64,000 bases of DNA from an uncultured Nitrospinota bacterium (lineage in GTDB: Bacteria > Nitrospinota > Nitrospinia > Nitrospinales > JAJDAT01), in assembly GCA_964570665.1 (NCBI GenBank), contig CAZMZH010000002.1, positions 365,642 to 429,641 on the forward strand, given 5' to 3'. The notes under the pieces were generated by a model. That model was not told the DNA's origin. It worked only from the letters and a program-made list of their open reading frames with translations, and did not search any database. Within the stretch, counting starts at the first letter, position 1. Each line of letters begins with the position of its first letter. This document shows, in pieces, positions 25,835-34,308 of this stretch. The translations under genes were made by a program, and so were the position numbers.

Positions 25835-26695
25835 ATGATAAAGTTTAGATTTTGGGGAGTAAGAGGTAGCGTTCCTTCTGGGAGCCCTGATACCGCAAAA
25901 TTTGGCGGTAATACTACTTGCCTAGAAGTTCGTTGCAATGAAGAATTGCTGATTTTTGATAGCGGCACCGGAATACGATATTTGGGTAATGAACTGATGA
26001 AGAGCTTGCCTATAAAAGGCAAGATTTTTTATTCCCATGTTCATTGGGATCACATTCAAGGGTTACCTTTTTTTACTCCACTTTACGTTCCCGGTAATGA
26101 GTTTCAAATTTATGGCGGCTCTAGTATGCCTGTTACGATTGAAGAGACTCTAAAAAAACAAATGACAGCCCCTTGTTTTCCAGTGCCAATGGATATAATG
26201 GGAGCAAAAATTGAGTTTTTTGACGTTGCTCCTGGAGATATTGTTAATGGGGAGAGTTACCAAGTTTCATTTGCTAGTCAGAACCACCCCAATAATTCTT
26301 TTGCTTTTAGGATAGATTGTGAGGATCAATCGATAGTATTTGCTACCGATACAGAACATTATGAAGATAAAATGGACGAAAACCTGCTTAAGCTGTGCCA
26401 AGGTGCCGACTATTTAATTTATGATAGCCAGTACACTTATGACGAATATCATGGATTAAACGGTCAGATGTCTCGAAAAACTTGGGGACATAGTACAGCT
26501 GAAGAAGGTTTAAAGTTAGTTAAAGAAGCTGGCGTTAAAAACTTTGTCCTTTTCCATCATGATCCAACCCATAACGATGAATTTATTTGTAGACTTGAAC
26601 GAAATGCCAAGGAGGTTTTTCCAAATTCCATCGCCGCTTATGAAGGATTGGAAATTGAAGTGGGCAAACCCATCCCTGATTCTTTGTTTAGTTAA
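25835..26695 (+). CDS. MBL-fold metallo-hydrolase
   Basis: 286 aa with N-terminal FWGVRGSVP ... GGNTTCLEV, the HVHWDH metal motif, and later D/H ligands (TDTEH, FHHDP). Confidence 0.8.
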   Translation: MIKFRFWGVRGSVPSGSPDTAKFGGNTTCLEVRCNEELLIFDSGTGIRYLGNELMKSLPIKGKIFYSHVHWDHIQGLPFFTPLYVPGNEFQIYGGSSMPVTIEETLKKQMTAPCFPVPMDIMGAKIEFFDVAPGDIVNGESYQVSFASQNHPNNSFAFRIDCEDQSIVFATDTEHYEDKMDENLLKLCQGADYLIYDSQYTYDEYHGLNGQMSRKTWGHSTAEEGLKLVKEAGVKNFVLFHHDPTHNDEFICRLERNAKEVFPNSIAAYEGLEIEVGKPIPDSLFS

Positions 26696-27923
26696 ACTTT
26701 CCTTTTTTCTTTTTTTAGTCTTTTTTTTAGATAGTTGTTCCTCTACTAAAAAGATACTTGGCCCAGATCCCCAATCCCATCGTTATGTAGACCTTACAAA
26801 GAAATATTTTCCCGATTTGCCCACTGGTATTCGCAAAGCGCTTTTTTTCTTTGTCAATTCTGATAAAAAAATCGATTGGATGGCTTTGACCAGGCCAAGA
26901 GAAAAATACCCTAACCCTAGCCTTCATTTTTTTTTAAATAATAAAAATAAACCGTTTACGCGAATTAATCGAACCGGTTTTAATAATCCGTTAAAAGTTA
27001 AGCAGCTTGATATTTCTCCAGGGGATTTGACTAGAGATAGAGCGGAGGATTTGCTTTTGCTAGGCAATACTGGAAAAGGTAATCGTGCTCTAGTTTTTTT
27101 TAATAATAAAAAAGGGTACTTTTATCGCCCTCCAAAAGAGATAACTCCGAAAATTGATCCTTCCATGGATCGAGGTTTGCTTGTTGACCTGGATTATGAC
27201 GGAGATTTAGATATGTTTTTTACTCGAAGGGGTAAGGGAAGAGTAAAAAACTCTAACTCAGTACAATTTTTTGTAAATAATGGAAAAGGAGGTTTTATTG
27301 ATAGGACGTCCCTGCTATTTCCCAAAATAAATCATCCTATTTCTGGACTTTCTATAGCGGATTATGATGGAGATCAAGTTTTTGATATATTTTTATTGAA
27401 TTCTAATGGAAAAAATACGCTTTGGATAAATAATGGCTCTGGTAAGTTTAAGGACGCCTCATCTTATTCTCTTCCAAATATTCCAGCACATTACGCCTTT
27501 GCCGATTGGGCAGATTTTGATCAAGATGGGGATAACGATTTATTAGTTACCACTACAAATTTAACCAAACGGTTTTCGAGGTTTGAAGGCGAATATAGCT
27601 TTTTCTTAGAGAACGATGGGAAGGGTCATTTTACCAAGCGTTCATTAAAGCTTTTACCTAAATACCCATCAACGCGCGTTTATTTGTTAGACGCGGATGG
27701 TAATGATATTCCAGATATTATTATTATAAGTAAAAAAGGAGCTCACCTTTTGGTTGGCCATGGAGGTTGGAAGTTTTCCGATGAAACCTTGAGAAGATTC
27801 CCCAAGGATAGGAGACTTGATGAAATGACCTTTGGAGATGTTGATGGCGACGGTTATTTGGATATTTTTAGCGTGGATTCGAAAAAGGGAGTGGGAAAAC
27901 TGTGGGTTAGCCGTTTTGAATAA
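26640..27923 (+). CDS. FG-GAP/VCBS-repeat lipoprotein (start uncertain)
   Basis: Repeated Ca-binding-like loops DLDYDGDLDMFF, IADYDGDQVFDIFL, WADFDQDGDNDLLV, LLDADGNDIPDIII, FGDVDGDGYLDIF. A lipobox-like FFLDS|C follows a hydrophobic stretch. The first plausible ATG (26640) overlaps the MBL gene by 56 nt. Confidence 0.7.
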   Translation: MKDWKLKWANPSLILCLVKLSFFLFLVFFLDSCSSTKKILGPDPQSHRYVDLTKKYFPDLPTGIRKALFFFVNSDKKIDWMALTRPREKYPNPSLHFFLNNKNKPFTRINRTGFNNPLKVKQLDISPGDLTRDRAEDLLLLGNTGKGNRALVFFNNKKGYFYRPPKEITPKIDPSMDRGLLVDLDYDGDLDMFFTRRGKGRVKNSNSVQFFVNNGKGGFIDRTSLLFPKINHPISGLSIADYDGDQVFDIFLLNSNGKNTLWINNGSGKFKDASSYSLPNIPAHYAFADWADFDQDGDNDLLVTTTNLTKRFSRFEGEYSFFLENDGKGHFTKRSLKLLPKYPSTRVYLLDADGNDIPDIIIISKKGAHLLVGHGGWKFSDETLRRFPKDRRLDEMTFGDVDGDGYLDIFSVDSKKGVGKLWVSRFE

Positions 27924-27951: not shown

Positions 27952-28482
27952 TTATTTAATTAATGTTTTACGCAAGACATTTAAAGAGTTTAGAAGAGTT
28001 ACAGTATGGTTTTCATAATCTAATTCTCCCGAAACCCAATCTTTAAAATCTTGGAATAGAGTCGACCCCGCGTCTCTTATTTGACTTTTTTTAATATCGA
28101 TGACGTCTAATACCGAACTGGCAAGTATTCCGGCACGGATATCCTCGTTTTCTAATATCATTATTCGATTATTTGCGTTTCTTTCCTCAGAAGGTAATCC
28201 TAAAAAGTCTCCAATCTCTATAACCGATTCAATTTCTCCTCGGATATTTACTAATCCCAATATGTGTTTAGGCGCAGTTGGAACAGGGTTGATCTTCTTA
28301 ATAGGAATAATTTCAGAAACGTCTAAACCCTTTAAAGCAAAATAAGCTCCTCGGATTTCAAATATCACTAAAATTATTAGCGGTTCTTTAATTAATCCCG
28401 CGATTCCTTTTTTCTCACGGATTTTCTTGATCCGTTTAACAATTTTTGAGGTTTTTTCTTTTGGATTTTGATTCGACTCCAT
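27952..28482 (-). CDS. cheW: CheW paralog (third CheW-like gene in the window)
   Basis: 176 aa, clearly similar to the CheW at 18555 (ILGLVNIRGEIESVIEIGDFLGL ... ILASSVLDVIDI). Basic N-terminal extension. Lies 30 bp downstream of the caspase gene. Confidence 0.85.
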   Translation of the reverse strand: MESNQNPKEKTSKIVKRIKKIREKKGIAGLIKEPLIILVIFEIRGAYFALKGLDVSEIIPIKKINPVPTAPKHILGLVNIRGEIESVIEIGDFLGLPSEERNANNRIMILENEDIRAGILASSVLDVIDIKKSQIRDAGSTLFQDFKDWVSGELDYENHTVTLLNSLNVLRKTLIK

Positions 28483-28512: not shown

Positions 28513-29964
28513 TCAATCTTCAATAAATAATTTCCAAGTGTAATCTGGGGTTGCCGATAATAAATCCATAGAAAGCTTTAAAATGTCCCCTTTTCGGAAA
28601 CATGGCTTTGACTCCAAATAAGAATCTTTGGGAATTCCATCTTTATCATAAAAAGTAAGCCGAATACCAGGCCTTCCTTTTATAAACCATCCCGATCCAG
28701 ATTCAGTTTTACATAATAATCGCACGTTTAAACATTTATGGGTACCGCATTCTGTTTCTTCAACCTTTAATACCTGTACGGCTTTATTCGCAGGAAGTTT
28801 CAAATTATATTTTATAGGATTTTGTAATTTTTTTCGAATTTCAAGCCGAGTCAATTGATTTATGCGTTCTGTTTTTTCGCGGCCTTGCTTTACGGATGCA
28901 ATTTTTTCTTGAAGTTCAAGTTTTAATAAAGCTAATTCTTGAAGTAGTTTTTCTTGTTTTTTTAGTTCTTCCTTTTGACTTACTTCAAGATTATGTTTTT
29001 TTTTCTTTAAATTTTTCGTTAAGTCAACCACACGATCGGAAATAGAAATTGGAAAAACAAAATCTCCTTGATCTAGGACGGCGTCTCGTAATTTCCCATA
29101 TTGTGGAACTTGACTACCTTTAGAATAATTGGTAACTGCATTTTCTAAAAATTGTCCCAACTCAGACCCAGTAATATAACCATCTCGATTTAAGTCGCCA
29201 TCGCCATTAAAAGCGCGAACGAATTGTCTCCGAAAAATGCTTTCGTCTGGAACTGATTGATTGGCTCGACCGGCGGCAATAAATTGTCGAACTGGTTTTC
29301 CAGTTTTTTCTTTTATAATCTGCGGGATTCCACGGCTAGTGGCGAATATAGACCCGGCAAAACAACTGTCGAATATAAACAATGCGTGCTTAGATTGAAT
29401 TGCTCTTGCGTATACCTCTATATTTTGCATGCTCATGGCTTTGCGTAAAAAGCCTCTTTTATCCGTATTTGGATTCGGAGTGTCTCTTGGAACAATAAAG
29501 CCCATTTCTGTTCCTCCATATTGAGGAACTAATGTGTATCCATGACCTGCAAAATAAAATAGTAGTCTATTTCCCTCGGCAAGACCATATCGGTCTACAA
29601 AGCTATCAAAGGCTTGATTTAGCTTTTCGCGTGTCGGATCTATAACAGTTTCAACTGAAAATCCTAATATTTCAAGAACTTCTTTTACCGATGCGATGTC
29701 TGAAATGACTCCAGGTAAGGCAGGCCATAAGCCTTTGTAGTCGCTTACCCCAATTAACAGCGCGTGACTTTCGTTGTATAAGCCAATAGTCGCTCCTTCT
29801 CCATCAATAATTGGGATGGGGATAATTCCTCGATCTAAAGGATCGCTCTGCTTACTTAAGTTTTGAGATTTTGATAAGCTGGATGGGATTTGTTCCAAAT
29901 TAGGCCCAGCGCATCCTAAAGAACAGATTAAGAAAGCGGCGGAAATTTGGAGCGGCAATTTCAT
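28513..29964 (-). CDS. Caspase-family (peptidase C14) lipoprotein with EF-hand-like loop, coiled coil and Cys-containing C-terminal domain
   Basis: Start moved to the ATG at 29964 (MKLPLQISAAFLICSLG|C lipobox). HALLIGVSDY, catalytic His in LFYFAGHG and Cys in IFDSCFAGS. The 12-residue loop DLNRDGYITGSE (29161-29196) fits the EF-hand pattern. A K/E/L/Q-rich coiled coil is followed by ~100 aa with 4 Cys. Confidence 0.85.
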   Translation of the reverse strand: MKLPLQISAAFLICSLGCAGPNLEQIPSSLSKSQNLSKQSDPLDRGIIPIPIIDGEGATIGLYNESHALLIGVSDYKGLWPALPGVISDIASVKEVLEILGFSVETVIDPTREKLNQAFDSFVDRYGLAEGNRLLFYFAGHGYTLVPQYGGTEMGFIVPRDTPNPNTDKRGFLRKAMSMQNIEVYARAIQSKHALFIFDSCFAGSIFATSRGIPQIIKEKTGKPVRQFIAAGRANQSVPDESIFRRQFVRAFNGDGDLNRDGYITGSELGQFLENAVTNYSKGSQVPQYGKLRDAVLDQGDFVFPISISDRVVDLTKNLKKKKHNLEVSQKEELKKQEKLLQELALLKLELQEKIASVKQGREKTERINQLTRLEIRKKLQNPIKYNLKLPANKAVQVLKVEETECGTHKCLNVRLLCKTESGSGWFIKGRPGIRLTFYDKDGIPKDSYLESKPCFRKGDILKLSMDLLSATPDYTWKLFIED

Positions 29965-30034
29965 TGGTCTAAGATAAAAAGTTTTTCTACATGATATCTT
30001 GAATTTATTTAAAACCCCAAGAGGTTTATAAAAA

Positions 30035-31123
30035 TTAATGAAATCCAAATATGGGTTCGGTAAGGTTTTGCAGATAAGGAGTATTTTCTAAAGCTTCGGC
30101 CCCAATCGCGCTGATTTTATTTTCTTCTAAAGTGAGCGTTTTCAGTTGTGCTGAATTTGGAGATTTGGCAATAGCGCTTGCGCCTTCGTCTCCAATAAAG
30201 TTGTAGTTTAAATCAAGATTTTCTAGTTTTTTTAAATTTTGTGATTTGGATATTACTATCGCTCCTATATCTCCAATTTTATTGTTGGATAATTTTAAAG
30301 ACTTTAATTGAGAAAAAGCTGGAGAATTTGCGATTTGAGTAATAGCTGCATCGGTTAGGTCGTTATAGGCTAAATTCAATTTAACTAATTGGGAAGCGAA
30401 AGGAGTTTCTAATAGGGCCTCAATTCCTATATCGCCAATGTACTGATTTTCCAAATTACTTAAAGTTCCTTTTTTTTGCATGTCGGAGAATTTAACTTTG
30501 TGCTCAAACTTTAAGAGCGCCTTCTTTCCACTCGATTCAATAGGATTGTATGAAAGATATAATTTTATCAAATTATTTAGTTTGTTTGAGGAAGTTACTT
30601 TAAGAGTTCCGTCGGCGCCAATGTTGTTATAACTTAGGTTTAGTTCTTTTAGCGCAGACATGTTATTCGAATTGGCCAAAAGCGTAGCGCCTTTATCGCT
30701 AATATTATTCCGGTATAAACTTAGCGATTTTAACTTCGAAAAAATTGGCGATTGGGCAATCGCGCTAACTCCGATGTCAGTAATGTTATTGTTGCCTAGC
30801 TCAAGGGTTTGTAGCCCTGTTAACTTATTTGATGTAGCTAATTCCTTGAGACCTTCGTCGCCAATTCCTGTGTCGTATAAAATCAAAGTGTCGAGGTCTT
30901 TAAGTAAAGACGACTGAGATAAAAATTTTGCGCCTTCTATTCCTATTAGTTTTGATTTAATTCTTAACGTATGTTTATTTCTTCTAATCTTTTTCTTAAC
31001 GTATTTTTCTAATTTTTCAATAGTTACTGGCGCCGATGCTCCGAAAGAAAATAAGCAACATATTAAAATCCAAGCCCAGGATTTTACTTGCAAAGTGGTT
31101 TTTTTACCTTTTTGTATAATCAT
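30035..31123 (-). CDS. Secreted leucine-rich-repeat protein, ribonuclease-inhibitor (RNI/NLR) type repeats
   Basis: Signal peptide (WAWILICCLFSFGASA|P), then about ten ~24-25-aa repeats L..L.L..N.IGD.GA..IA.S... Its ATG directly abuts the stop of the upstream LRR gene (TAAATG). Confidence 0.85.
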   Translation of the reverse strand: MIIQKGKKTTLQVKSWAWILICCLFSFGASAPVTIEKLEKYVKKKIRRNKHTLRIKSKLIGIEGAKFLSQSSLLKDLDTLILYDTGIGDEGLKELATSNKLTGLQTLELGNNNITDIGVSAIAQSPIFSKLKSLSLYRNNISDKGATLLANSNNMSALKELNLSYNNIGADGTLKVTSSNKLNNLIKLYLSYNPIESSGKKALLKFEHKVKFSDMQKKGTLSNLENQYIGDIGIEALLETPFASQLVKLNLAYNDLTDAAITQIANSPAFSQLKSLKLSNNKIGDIGAIVISKSQNLKKLENLDLNYNFIGDEGASAIAKSPNSAQLKTLTLEENKISAIGAEALENTPYLQNLTEPIFGFH

Positions 31124-32134
31124 TTAATTTTCTTGACGTCCTTCCAATTCTCGACCCGACAAAACTTCTCCTGGATCAAAGGGGAAAATAGTATTAGTCA
31201 AGTTTTTTAAATAGGGCGATTCTTTTATTAGTTGAATACCTTTGTCGCCTACTTCATTTCCCCAGATTTCCAAAATCGACAAGGATTTGAGATGAGCAGA
31301 TTTGGATAAATCCTTTGCTCCTTGAAGGACAAATCCATTCCATTGTAGATTCAATTTTTTTAGTTTGGAAAAAGCTTTTGTGTTTGCTAAATGTCGAATT
31401 CCTTCGTTGCCTAGTTTGTTTTGCCTCAAATTTAGTTCAATTAAGCCGTTAATCTTAGCGGATGTTTTCCAATGTTTTATTCCTTTAGGGCCTATATTAT
31501 TTTTCGAAACGTCTAGTATTCTTAAATTAGGCAAATTAGAAGATTCTGCAATCGCGGCAATTCCTTCGTTTCCAATGTGGTTGTCCCCTAATAATAATAC
31601 CTTTAGAGAATTAAATTTTGCTTTTGCAATTGCTTTTGCTCCATCGGAACCAATTTGGTTTCCAGAAAGATCCAGAAATTCTAATCGCGTCAGGTTTTGC
31701 GACTTAGCGATTCCATCGACGATTCCTTTATCTCCAATTTTATTACCCCAGAGATTTAAATAAGTTAATATTTTTACATTATTAGAAAAAGCCAAAGCAA
31801 TTGCGCCATCTGATCCAATATTATTATGGAATAAGTCTAGCGATTTAAGGTTAGTGAGATAAGGAGAATCCGCTAAATTTTGTGCGCCTTGATCGGTTAT
31901 CTCGTGGGTTTGTAGACGGAGAGTTTTCACATGGCGTATCATTTTTGATTGAGCTAAAGCTTTTATCCCTGAATCTTTTAGAATTCCACTTCCTCCCATA
32001 TCCAAATGAGTATTGTTTTTGGTTAAATCGTTAAATATAAATTGATTAACGTCAAATGCATGGGTTAAGAGAGGAAATACGGTAAAACATGTAAAAAAGA
32101 AGCACGCTGCTTTAACTTCTTTAATTTTTCTCAT
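31124..32134 (-). CDS. Secreted leucine-rich-repeat protein, RNI/NLR type repeats
   Basis: Signal peptide (ACFFFTCFTVFPLLTHA|F), then about ten repeats such as LKSLDLFHNNIGSDGAIALAFS and LEFLDLSGNQIGSDGAKAIAKA. Confidence 0.85.
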   Translation of the reverse strand: MRKIKEVKAACFFFTCFTVFPLLTHAFDVNQFIFNDLTKNNTHLDMGGSGILKDSGIKALAQSKMIRHVKTLRLQTHEITDQGAQNLADSPYLTNLKSLDLFHNNIGSDGAIALAFSNNVKILTYLNLWGNKIGDKGIVDGIAKSQNLTRLEFLDLSGNQIGSDGAKAIAKAKFNSLKVLLLGDNHIGNEGIAAIAESSNLPNLRILDVSKNNIGPKGIKHWKTSAKINGLIELNLRQNKLGNEGIRHLANTKAFSKLKKLNLQWNGFVLQGAKDLSKSAHLKSLSILEIWGNEVGDKGIQLIKESPYLKNLTNTIFPFDPGEVLSGRELEGRQEN

Positions 32135-32154: not shown

Positions 32155-34308
32155 TTAAGGGAAATTGTGGACTATAAGGTTTACTTCCAAACCATCTTGC
32201 AAATAACCAAAGTTAGCGATACCGGCAATTGTGGTTACAATACCTTGAGGGTCTATTTTTCTAATTCGATTATTTCCTCGATCAGTGACATAGAGATTGC
32301 CCATTGAGTCAAATGCCATATCGCGAGGATTTTGAAAATTGGCTTTAACGGCAAGACCGCCGTCGCCTGAAAAACCGCCGTCGCCAGTACCCGCGACTGG
32401 AATAATTTGACCTTTTTTATCAATTTTCCTGATGCGATGCGTTTGTTGTTCGCAAATGTATAGTTCGTTGTCAGGGGATATCGCTAAGGCTCCCGGAGAC
32501 CGAATGCCTGCCGAAATAGCGGGACCATAGTCGCCATGATCTCTAAAATCCCCGTTACCTGCAATGATTTCAACTTTATTATTAGAGTTGATTTTGTATA
32601 TTTTCCCAACGCCGGAATCTGATACATATATGTTATTTGCGGAATCAATTGCTATTCCATTAGGATGAATATCGCCGGGCAAGGCATCCCAAGCTTTTTC
32701 TGCTACTTTTGATATGATTCCATTGGTGGCTATTTTTCGGATAAATCGATTAGATCTGTCCGCTATATATAGTTCATCCTCAGTACCCACCGCAATCGCT
32801 CTTATAGTTACAAATGAAGCGTCTAAAGCTTGGCCTTCGTCCCCGCCGGTTCCAGCCAAGGCATTTCCAGCAAAAGGCTTTATTTGCCCCTTCGAATCAA
32901 TATTTATGATGCGCCAGCCGTTACCATTTCTTTCAACGGCATATATGTCTCCATTGTTTCCTCTAGCGACAAAATTTGGCCTTAATAAAGAAGTTTCAAG
33001 CGCTAGTCCTGAGGTCCCGCTTGAGCTAGCCTTGCCAGTTCCTGCAAAGGCATGAATATTCCCGTCGGCGTCAATTTTTCGCAACCTGTTTTGCATTTGG
33101 TCTGCGAATATAATTTCATTTTTTTCGTTGAAGGTTATCCCTGAAGGACCTTCAAGTGTTGCTCCGAGCGCGGGTCCTCCATCTCCTTTCAATAAAGATT
33201 TTCCATTCCCGGCAATGGTTTTGACACGACCAGAAAGAAAATCGACTTTTCGAATTCGGAAATGGGATCTATCCACCACGAGTAGGCTTTTTTGATCTGA
33301 TCCAATAGCCAAAGAAAATGGTAAATGTAAATTGGATTGAGAAGCGACGCCTTGATCGCCGTTATAATGAGTTAATCCTGTTCCCATAAATGTAGTTATA
33401 ATTCCATCAGGGTCTACTTTTCGAACGCGATTATTATTGCGATCGGCAATATAAATATTGCCTTTATTATCTGCGGCAACATCGGTAGGGAAAGCTAAAT
33501 CTCCTTGATTTGCGGGTCCATAATCTCCTCGAATGGCAAAAAGACCTGTTCCGGCAACAGTATAGACGGTTCCATCCGGATCAATTTTTCGGATGCGGTT
33601 ATTCCCACGATCTGCAACAAATAAATTACCTTGGTTGTCGAATGTAAGCCCAAAGGGGAATTTAAAAAAAGCTTCGTCGGCAGGACCGAAATCTCCTCCA
33701 TAACTAGGAACTCCCATTCCTGCATAGGTAGTAATTATTCCATTAGTATCTACCTTTCGGATACGGTTATTGGACCGATCTGAAATATAAATTTGTCCAG
33801 ACTTATCGATGGCTACATCAGATGGGAAATGAAGGCTGGTTTCAGTTGCCTTCATGTTATCTCCCGAATAATCTGGAATTCCATTACCGGCAATTGTTGT
33901 AATAATTCCATCTGGATCAATCTTTCGTACACGATGGTTATTACGATCGGCTATGTAGAGATTTCCTGTTGAATCAAAAGCTAAGCCAGCTGGAAAGTTT
34001 AGCGATGCATTGATTGCTGGTCCTTCATCTCCCGAAAATCCTGCGCGCCCATTACCCGAAATAGTGGTTACTATTCCGTTTTGATCAATTTTTCGAATTC
34101 TATTTTGAGAACGATGGGAAATATAAATATTTCCTTTTGGGCCGATAGCAATACCGTCAACCAAAGTAAAAATTACAGAAGTGGCTTTTTGCCCATCGCC
34201 TATTTTTTTGTAGGGAAATGAGTCCGCCGAAAAAGCTTTGAAAGGAACCCCAAGCGCAAGAAGCCCAATTATTACGGCTAGTTTTCTAAAATAAATTAAG
34301 TTTTGCAT
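32155..34308 (-). CDS. Secreted NHL-repeat protein, about 12 blades (two six-bladed beta-propellers)
   Basis: Signal peptide (AVIIGLLALGVPFKAFSA|D). Twelve recognisable repeats of the form P.G.A.D..GN.YIADR.NNRIRKID.DG.ITT.AG.G..G.SGD.GPA. Confidence 0.9.
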   Translation of the reverse strand: MQNLIYFRKLAVIIGLLALGVPFKAFSADSFPYKKIGDGQKATSVIFTLVDGIAIGPKGNIYISHRSQNRIRKIDQNGIVTTISGNGRAGFSGDEGPAINASLNFPAGLAFDSTGNLYIADRNNHRVRKIDPDGIITTIAGNGIPDYSGDNMKATETSLHFPSDVAIDKSGQIYISDRSNNRIRKVDTNGIITTYAGMGVPSYGGDFGPADEAFFKFPFGLTFDNQGNLFVADRGNNRIRKIDPDGTVYTVAGTGLFAIRGDYGPANQGDLAFPTDVAADNKGNIYIADRNNNRVRKVDPDGIITTFMGTGLTHYNGDQGVASQSNLHLPFSLAIGSDQKSLLVVDRSHFRIRKVDFLSGRVKTIAGNGKSLLKGDGGPALGATLEGPSGITFNEKNEIIFADQMQNRLRKIDADGNIHAFAGTGKASSSGTSGLALETSLLRPNFVARGNNGDIYAVERNGNGWRIINIDSKGQIKPFAGNALAGTGGDEGQALDASFVTIRAIAVGTEDELYIADRSNRFIRKIATNGIISKVAEKAWDALPGDIHPNGIAIDSANNIYVSDSGVGKIYKINSNNKVEIIAGNGDFRDHGDYGPAISAGIRSPGALAISPDNELYICEQQTHRIRKIDKKGQIIPVAGTGDGGFSGDGGLAVKANFQNPRDMAFDSMGNLYVTDRGNNRIRKIDPQGIVTTIAGIANFGYLQDGLEVNLIVHNFP

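Follow-up and report, generated by a model that had tools for sequence, protein, structure and literature searches.

The 64,000-nucleotide stretch of DNA analysed here (the window) comes from an uncultured Nitrospinota bacterium of the class Nitrospinia, order Nitrospinales (contig CAZMZH010000002.1, positions 365,642 to 429,641), has a G+C content of 36% and carries on its reverse strand, at 28513-29964, a gene for an exported protease of the C14 (caspase) family. As read from the open reading frame list and its translation, the gene runs from an ATG at 29964 to a stop codon at 28513-28515 and encodes 483 amino acids: a signal peptide is followed by a low-complexity tether, a protease domain with an EF-hand-like loop inside its fold, a long charged helix and an orphan C-terminal domain, with cysteines at positions 14, 18, 201, 406, 411, 418 and 455. 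The protein is found unchanged in public collections (P0001), together with five orthologues of 82-84% identity; the contigs of the orthologues carry the labels of metagenome-assembled genomes of Nitrospinales, Nitrospinota or Nitrospinia. Statements on six orthologues refer to the orthologue alignment, and family statistics refer to 112 aligned homologues, only 40-60% identical overall. Synonymous divergence among the orthologues is near saturation in our analysis of the ratio of nonsynonymous to synonymous substitution rates (dN/dS).

The protease domain covers residues 45-306 (29047-29832; this and all other parts of the gene are on the reverse strand) and was assigned to the caspase/hemoglobinase fold by Pfam, the catalytic dyad, an AlphaFold model and Foldseek. 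Peptidase_C14 (PF00656) matches residues 67-212 with 63.7 bits against a gathering threshold of 21.4 (E = 2.7e-17), and the dyad formed by H141 (AGHG; codon 29542-29544) and C201 (DSC; codon 29362-29364) is invariant in the 112 homologues; the caspase-family identity given in an initial annotation of this DNA is thereby upheld. The predicted local distance difference test (pLDDT) score of the model lies mostly above 90 for residues 60-305, and family conservation extends to F304. MALT1 is the best fold match in Foldseek (E = 6.5e-13, 22% identity) and the best solved match in phmmer (E = 6e-7), followed by GSU0716, Arabidopsis metacaspase-9, for which the sequence match is marginal (E = 0.14), and animal caspases, including caspases 9 and 11 in Foldseek.

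The resemblance to MALT1 includes the substrate pocket. We take D365, D462 and E500 to be the acidic S1 residues of MALT1, and E500 presumably corresponds to the invariant D240 of the window protein. D89 and D199, both invariant in the family, align with D365 and D462, the MALT1 numbering in this alignment being derived from the H415/C464 spacing. Because two of the acidic S1 positions are matched in this way, we infer a conserved acidic pocket (D89, D199 and probably D240) and cleavage after Arg or Lys.

Judged by its sequence, the protein is a C14 cysteine protease of the type called "orthocaspase" (in the sense of PMC6426788), with a protease domain most like that of the paracaspase MALT1. 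The N-terminal prodomain of type I metacaspases is replaced by the signal peptide and tether, and in place of the long p20-p10 linker of type II metacaspases the model has about 13 poorly ordered residues (211-223) after the catalytic Cys; where the window protein reads SMQNIE, IIDDEM stands in a metacaspase-like homologue from a plasmid. The death and Ig domains of a MALT1-type paracaspase gave no Pfam match, the flanks consisting of the signal peptide, the helix and the orphan beta domain. The initial annotation had argued for Ca2+ control by pointing to type I/II metacaspases; this argument does not carry over, given that the nearest solved relative is MALT1 and that metacaspase Ca2+ sites are different ones.

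Residues 1-18 (MKLPLQISAAFLICSLG-C18; 29911-29964) have the features of a signal peptide with a lipobox-like LGC end. K2, the hydrophobic core and LGC18 are kept in all six orthologues, and LGC[AG/AN]P is invariant. Because a signal-peptide-like N-terminus was also present in 102 of the 112 homologues, by a crude test demanding a basic N-terminus and then 10 or more hydrophobic residues in a row, export appears to be a property of the whole family. The homologous signal peptides typically end at an A-x-A-type site directly before the conserved RG[IV]xPVPIKD, and most relatives would simply be secreted to the periplasm by these ordinary signal peptides. An LGC motif followed by a tether of about 26 amino acids, in place of the ordinary signal peptide, is found only in the six orthologues; homologues of the signal-peptidase-I type have no tether. 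In the window protein the tether comprises residues 19-44, from Cys18 to the conserved RG of the mature domain (29833-29910). It is poorly conserved, pLDDT falls below 50 for residues 17-44, and its dN/dS of 0.2-0.5 is relaxed in comparison with 0.03-0.07 in the domains.

The initial annotation called the protein a lipoprotein. Export, the first part of that claim, is firm, and LGC is invariant; the second part is less secure, the lipobox of the window protein (ICSLGC) being atypical, with S at -3 and C at -4, and failing a strict PROSITE-type pattern that three of five orthologues pass. Lipidation, and hence anchoring in the cell envelope, is on this showing probable. The mature domain opens with the pair R45-G46 (29827-29832), which at least 90% of the family retain and which, in the lipoprotein variant, lies 27 residues beyond the anchor Cys; as a speculation, an enzyme that cleaves behind Arg might release itself here.

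A single EF-hand-like helix-loop-helix, recognised by pattern, conservation and model, occupies residues 243-280 (29125-29238) inside the caspase fold. Its 12-residue loop DLNRDGYITGSE (residues 257-268) lies exactly where the initial annotation had put it, at 29161-29196, with the EF-hand residues there described. It matches the PROSITE EF-hand pattern and, with Leu at position 13, DLNRDGYITGSEL satisfies the full 13-residue version. Translated in all six frames, the window contains no second match, and 30 shuffled versions of it gave 0.07 on average; taken alone, this is only suggestive. The initial annotation had let its case depend on conservation of the loop in homologues, and this conservation is pronounced: D at position 1 and E at position 12 are present in 112/112 sequences, D or N at position 3 in 111, D at position 5 in 110, G at position 6 in 93, Y at position 7 in 110 and T at position 9 in 111. 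The pattern as a whole is matched by 93 of the 112, and among the orthologues the loop segment has the lowest dN/dS in the protein (0-0.04).

In the model, helix 243-255 leads into the loop, residues 263-265 (loop positions 7-9) form a strand, and helix 266-280 sets off from position 10, all at a pLDDT of about 90; this modelled helix-strand-helix order is that of real EF-hands. The loop had been described as lying just after the protease core. It does follow the Pfam p20 match, which ends at residue 212, yet core strands 288-292 and 303-305 come later in the model, and because they do, the loop is part of the caspase fold, where it connects alpha4 and alpha5 (caspase nomenclature), the pair of helices behind strand 5. 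A profile of residues 222-306 gave weak matches in the PDB to genuine EF-hand proteins (among them secretagogin, calmodulin, calcineurin B and Entamoeba CaBP; E = 0.0016 and above). PDB searches with this region also gave weak unrelated matches, for example RSC8, and no caspase-family chain with the loop was retrieved from the PDB by single-sequence or profile searches with residues 222-306.

Outside the aligned family we considered ten C14 homologues from plasmids. The full loop is present in Rhizobium lusitanum (DSNRDGYLTGTE) and Azospirillum TSA2s (DANGDGIVTNAE), and a degenerate or partial version in R. leguminosarum (SRNADGYVTGSD) and two cyanobacteria (PPGDGVITAAE). Many bacterial C14 homologues have lost the loop acids, and therefore Ca2+ is not essential to the fold; from these comparisons the loop appears to elaborate a conserved turn, the elaboration being widespread but dispensable.

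We consider Ca2+ binding at the loop likely because the loop is conserved across the family, and such binding is the simplest explanation of this conservation. Several observations weigh against it. Pfam scores stay below gathering (EF-hand_5, 16.8 against 25.9; EF-hand_6, 14.9 against 25; EF-hand_1, 14.1 against 25.4); the motif is single and unpaired, the only one in the protein and embedded in a caspase fold; G-[ED]-G precedes the loop, its two glycines interrupting the entering helix; position 6 is F or L in a sister clade (13 of the 112 sequences), outside the PROSITE pattern; the acidic residues are lost in five of the ten distant homologues, including TIR-adjacent actinobacterial caspases; and orthocaspases and paracaspases have been described as Ca2+-independent (PMC5756287, PMC8283722). 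The sister clade (P0005, P0008-P0020; for example DYNKDFYVTASE) keeps all acidic positions, and Phe or Leu for Gly at position 6 is unusual for a Ca2+ loop.

The sub-threshold Pfam scores, the lack of a partner motif and the F/L substitution would equally suit an EF-hand-like structural turn that holds no metal and uses its acidic residues for hydrogen bonding or helix capping, and there are indeed homologues that lack the acidic residues and retain the turn, as G-x-[IV]-T-x-x-E-L. The conservation of donor positions 1, 3, 5 and 12 at 98-100% across sequences only 40-60% identical is hard to explain in this way, and we think a metal-free turn unlikely.

If Ca2+ is bound, its role has to be considered separately. 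Members of the Nitrospinota are mostly marine, and the Ca2+ concentration outside their cells is high and steady. In the caspase topology, the turn between alpha4 and alpha5 lies at the helix ends opposite the active site. Because the protein is exported into steady Ca2+ and the turn lies opposite the active site, we favour a structural role, or one in licensing, over that of a signalling switch: Ca2+, abundant outside the cytoplasm, would stabilise or license the fold after export, and the loop would be a structural or compartment-sensing site.

Alternatively, the enzyme may be Ca2+-gated, changes in free Ca2+ switching it by resetting the angle between alpha4 and alpha5 and ordering the substrate loops. 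Such a mechanism would draw on the family-wide conservation and the EF-hand geometry of the model and, judging from the model and from general caspase topology, on the connections of both helices, with alpha4 beginning at the loop that carries the invariant D240 and alpha5 ending at the last substrate-side loop. We nonetheless judge it improbable: at steady external Ca2+ the site of an exported protein would probably be constantly occupied, caspase topology would put it at the far helix end from the catalytic centre, and there are neither Ca2+-related neighbour genes nor a conserved neighbourhood. A bolder proposal makes the embedded EF-hand a genuine Ca2+ switch, common to a large exported orthocaspase clade and to the scattered Rhizobium and Azospirillum homologues, and the orphan four-Cys domain a newly evolved receptor for a substrate or for the envelope. 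It is possible, and we doubt it; were it true, C14 proteases would have come under Ca2+ control by a third route, independent of the others, and the view of orthocaspases as Ca2+-independent would be contradicted. For the window protein, we retain Ca2+ in a structural or licensing role.

Behind the protease domain, residues 308-379 (28828-29043; K15, L13, E10, Q6) are modelled as one 72-residue helix in which 32 residues are charged. The initial annotation had seen a coiled coil here. The K/E/L/Q-rich composition and the single helix bear this out in part; heptad periodicity is weak, the best register having 9 of 21 hydrophobic a/d positions, and because of this weakness the segment is better taken as a spacer or stalk (a single alpha-helix) whose coiled-coil character is weak at best. 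In relatives, too, a helical linker of this kind stands before the variable C-terminal domain.

The orphan C-terminal domain comprises 104 amino acids (residues 380-483; 28516-28827) and is predicted to be all-beta. Its four cysteines (406, 411, 418 and 455; ECGTHKC...LLC...PC) are invariant in the six orthologues, and the domain shows 93% mean column identity and a dN/dS of 0.02-0.07, like the protease domain; these values indicate strong purifying selection. Pfam gave no match for it, and HMMER searches with residues 355-483 over 1.84 billion cluster representatives returned the protein's own cluster and one weak match, P0126. The initial annotation was right to leave this four-Cys domain unassigned: modelled with the six orthologues, AlphaFold yields an all-beta structure of six strands (pLDDT 62, predicted template modelling score 0.56) for which the PDB holds no significant fold match (best E = 0.13). 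A word-indexed search with the C-terminal alignment gave zero matches and missed even the domain's own orthologues, and is uninformative.

Two candidate identities were considered. P0126 is a protein with 11 Ig I-set repeats, and Ig-like identity was rejected at a profile-profile probability of 0.7% in a different register. Descent from the SH3-like module of the sister clade amounts to a 10-residue motif (KTESG-SGWFI against KMEDGVVGWFY) with a probability of 3.4% and nothing in BLASTP; it is a lead, not supported.

In relatives the same slot is filled by SH3_3, FGE-sulfatase, TPR, TonB_C, PEGA, DUF1566, PDZ, cytochrome c or peptidoglycan-binding domains; an architecture of Peptidase_C14 with FGE-sulfatase has been surveyed before (PMC3501461). 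Because the orphan domain occupies the variable C-terminal slot of the family, it is, by analogy, probably a lineage-specific targeting or binding module. This assignment is tempered by the low confidence of the model and by the fact that the function is deduced from architectural position alone. The autoinhibitory role that the initial annotation had offered as an option found no support, the variable slot favouring targeting.

The four cysteines probably form two disulfides. Their invariance in so small a domain and the C-x4-C pair at a predicted hairpin might also be read as a metal (Zn or Fe) or redox-sensing site. Against such a site speak the extracytoplasmic location, where disulfides are the rule, the spacing C-x4-C-x6-C-x36-C, which is unlike known zinc-ribbon or knuckle patterns, and the lack of conserved His partners nearby, and we hold it quite unlikely.

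The caspase gene stands in a cluster of repeat-protein genes. Directly upstream on the reverse strand are two tandem genes for RI-like LRR_6 (leucine-rich repeat, LRR) proteins (30035-31123 and 31124-32134), both with hydrophobic, signal-peptide-like N-termini, preceded by a gene for an NHL beta-propeller (32155-34308, reverse strand); glycosyltransferases are also encoded upstream on this strand. In one orthologous locus (L002, 4798-5460 and 5381-5917) the second LRR gene is split into overlapping reading frames of 220 and 178 amino acids, which suggests a frameshift or pseudogene. On the other side, a gene for a solitary CheW domain, extended at the N-terminus by a Lys-rich segment (27952-28482, reverse strand), starts 30 nucleotides past the caspase stop, and Pfam scans of ten neighbouring genes found no other chemotaxis genes. 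It is followed by an FG-GAP protein gene on the forward strand (26544-27923), also part of the repeat-protein cluster. The FG-GAP reading frame (459 amino acids from a TTG) overlaps a gene of metallo-beta-lactamase fold (25835-26695, forward strand) by about 150 nucleotides, and public gene calls give it 427 amino acids; its true start is probably downstream.

The order NHL, LRR, LRR, caspase, CheW is kept in four genomes, all close relatives, and the neighbours of three distant family members are unrelated; a conserved gene neighbourhood was rejected for this reason, and we draw no functional link to the neighbours. The family member of Nitrospina gracilis (locus L006, 7420-9603), for instance, lies tail to tail with a gene for a CHASE2-guanylate cyclase-TPR sensor and has a Sel1-repeat gene among its upstream neighbours.

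The LRR pair and the NHL propeller directly upstream, in an order kept in four genomes, might suggest that the protein supplies the proteolytic arm of a defence or conflict system, either of EACC1 type or coupled to the neighbouring LRR proteins; NCBIfam NF047832 (caspase_w_EACC1) aligns over residues 66-277, including the loop, and the generic caspase model of PADLOC gives 48 bits. The NCBIfam score is 50 bits, far under the cut-off of 140, no other defence component was matched, the syntenic genomes are close relatives, distant members have unrelated neighbours, and known defence caspases are, to our knowledge, cytoplasmic, whereas the window protein is exported. Membership in a defence system, for which the generic caspase model was the sole match, was rejected as very improbable. 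Separately, plasmids of Pseudarthrobacter and Rhodococcus (L011, 227-1587; L016, 213-1575) carry small operons of a TIR-domain protein, a caspase without the acidic loop residues and a short hypothetical protein; their arrangement resembles a defence-type module and sets them apart from the exported family.

Between the stop of the adjoining LRR gene (30035) and the caspase ATG (29964) lies a conserved intergenic block of 49 nucleotides, ATAAACCTCTTGGGGTTTTAAATAAATTCAAGATATCATGTAGAAAAAC (29981-30029, reverse strand). We compared the region upstream of the gene with three orthologous loci, L002, L003 and L004: the block is nearly invariant in the four genomes, in which synonymous sites are near saturation, and the orthologues carry an insertion of 15-16 nucleotides just upstream of it. 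The caspase gene may have its promoter or operator here. The block has no Rfam match and no supported RNA structure, and nothing convincing came from scans for promoters, terminators, Rfam families and RNA structures in the surroundings of the gene and the upstream block.

The same comparison bears on the start codon, over which the initial annotation had worried, the longer frame from 30048 destroying the signal peptide. L002 has an in-frame stop 8 codons ahead of the ATG and L003 has one 2 codons ahead of it, neither locus offers another start, and insertions and deletions in the orthologous loci disrupt the frame relative to the upstream gene. Because of these stops in two of the three orthologous loci and the common beginning MKL, the ATG at 29964 is the real start and the signal peptide stands; the short form with its lipobox was the correct choice, and the extracytoplasmic location proposed at the outset is borne out by start and export signal alike. 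Translation from the TTG at 30048, which would give a cytoplasmic protein with the hydrophobic stretch internal, has in its favour a frame open to that point in the window and in L004 and a JGI call of the 511-amino-acid version, and was rejected as scarcely credible, being at odds with the two in-frame stops, with an extension that would run into the upstream gene, with the MKL beginning of six out of six orthologues and with the uniform signal peptides of the wider family.

Taken together, we read the protein as an exported, probably lipid-anchored C14 protease with a built-in Ca2+-type loop, a helical stalk and a lineage-specific targeting domain, an interpretation that we hold as a whole with moderate confidence. 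The signal peptide, the LGC motif and the flexible tether of about 26 residues would hold the protease in the cell envelope, helix 308-379 would act as a spacer or weak oligomerisation stalk presenting the C-terminal domain, and the C-terminal beta domain would bring the protease to a target or to a site in the envelope.

Homologues of caspases abound in bacteria, and almost none has a known function or control mechanism; in the literature searched, the orthocaspase MaOC1 is the only one characterised biochemically (PMC5756287, a 2017 review; later study PMC7935541). A Ca2+-type loop conserved in more than 100 exported homologues marks a subgroup in which regulation may differ, and this loop is the most useful lead, being easily testable. 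The layout of a protease, a helical stalk and an exchangeable C-terminal domain suggests aiming at different envelope targets, and the orphan domain exemplifies a lineage-specific module under strong constraint. There is no major surprise in this, and the finding alone opens no long-standing question.

Among known systems, a comparable single structural EF-hand-like site is reportedly present in Slt35/MltB, a periplasmic lipoprotein of E. coli. With the EF-hand and DxDxDG loops (Rigden & Galperin 2004, cited in PMC10888605), the loop of the window protein shares the PROSITE pattern and the conserved oxygen-donor positions; it differs in being single, within an enzyme fold, sub-threshold in Pfam and preceded by a broken entering helix. 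In the literature searched we found no description of an EF-hand-type site inside a bacterial caspase fold; one survey records an "EF-hand motif" among the additional features of 7 archaeal orthocaspases (PMC6426788).

MALT1 (PDB 3V4O, 3UO8, 8V4X) is like the window protein in G-H-G, D-x-C, VP-x-D-x-PNP and the acidic S1 residues D365 and D462. Unlike it, MALT1 is cytoplasmic, has death and Ig domains and is described as independent of Ca2+ and activated by dimerisation (PMC8283722), and a profile of the loop region retrieved no EF-hand-type sequence from MALT1. MaOC1 of Microcystis aeruginosa (PMC5756287, PMC7935541) is likewise a prokaryotic C14 protein without a metacaspase-type p10, with basic P1 expected, but its autoprocessing has been reported without Ca2+; the orthocaspase label covers it and the window protein alike. 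The type I, II and III metacaspases (TbMCA2, Yca1, AtMC4) share C14 membership; they have basic P1 specificity and are Ca2+-dependent, but they bind Ca2+ through acidic residues clustered in p20 and through the p10 280-loop, not through an EF-hand (PMC5756287).

The closest likeness is to the exported caspase-family proteins of Nitrospinota and other phyla (for example P0051 of Nitrospina gracilis), which are 40-62% identical over residues 45-306 and share the RG...PVPIKD start, the His/Cys dyad, the EF-hand-like loop and the helical linker after the protease domain. They have ordinary signal peptides and C-terminal domains of known types where the window protein has its lipobox, tether and orphan domain; this combination is what is new in the gene, and its departure from a known, poorly studied family is real but modest.

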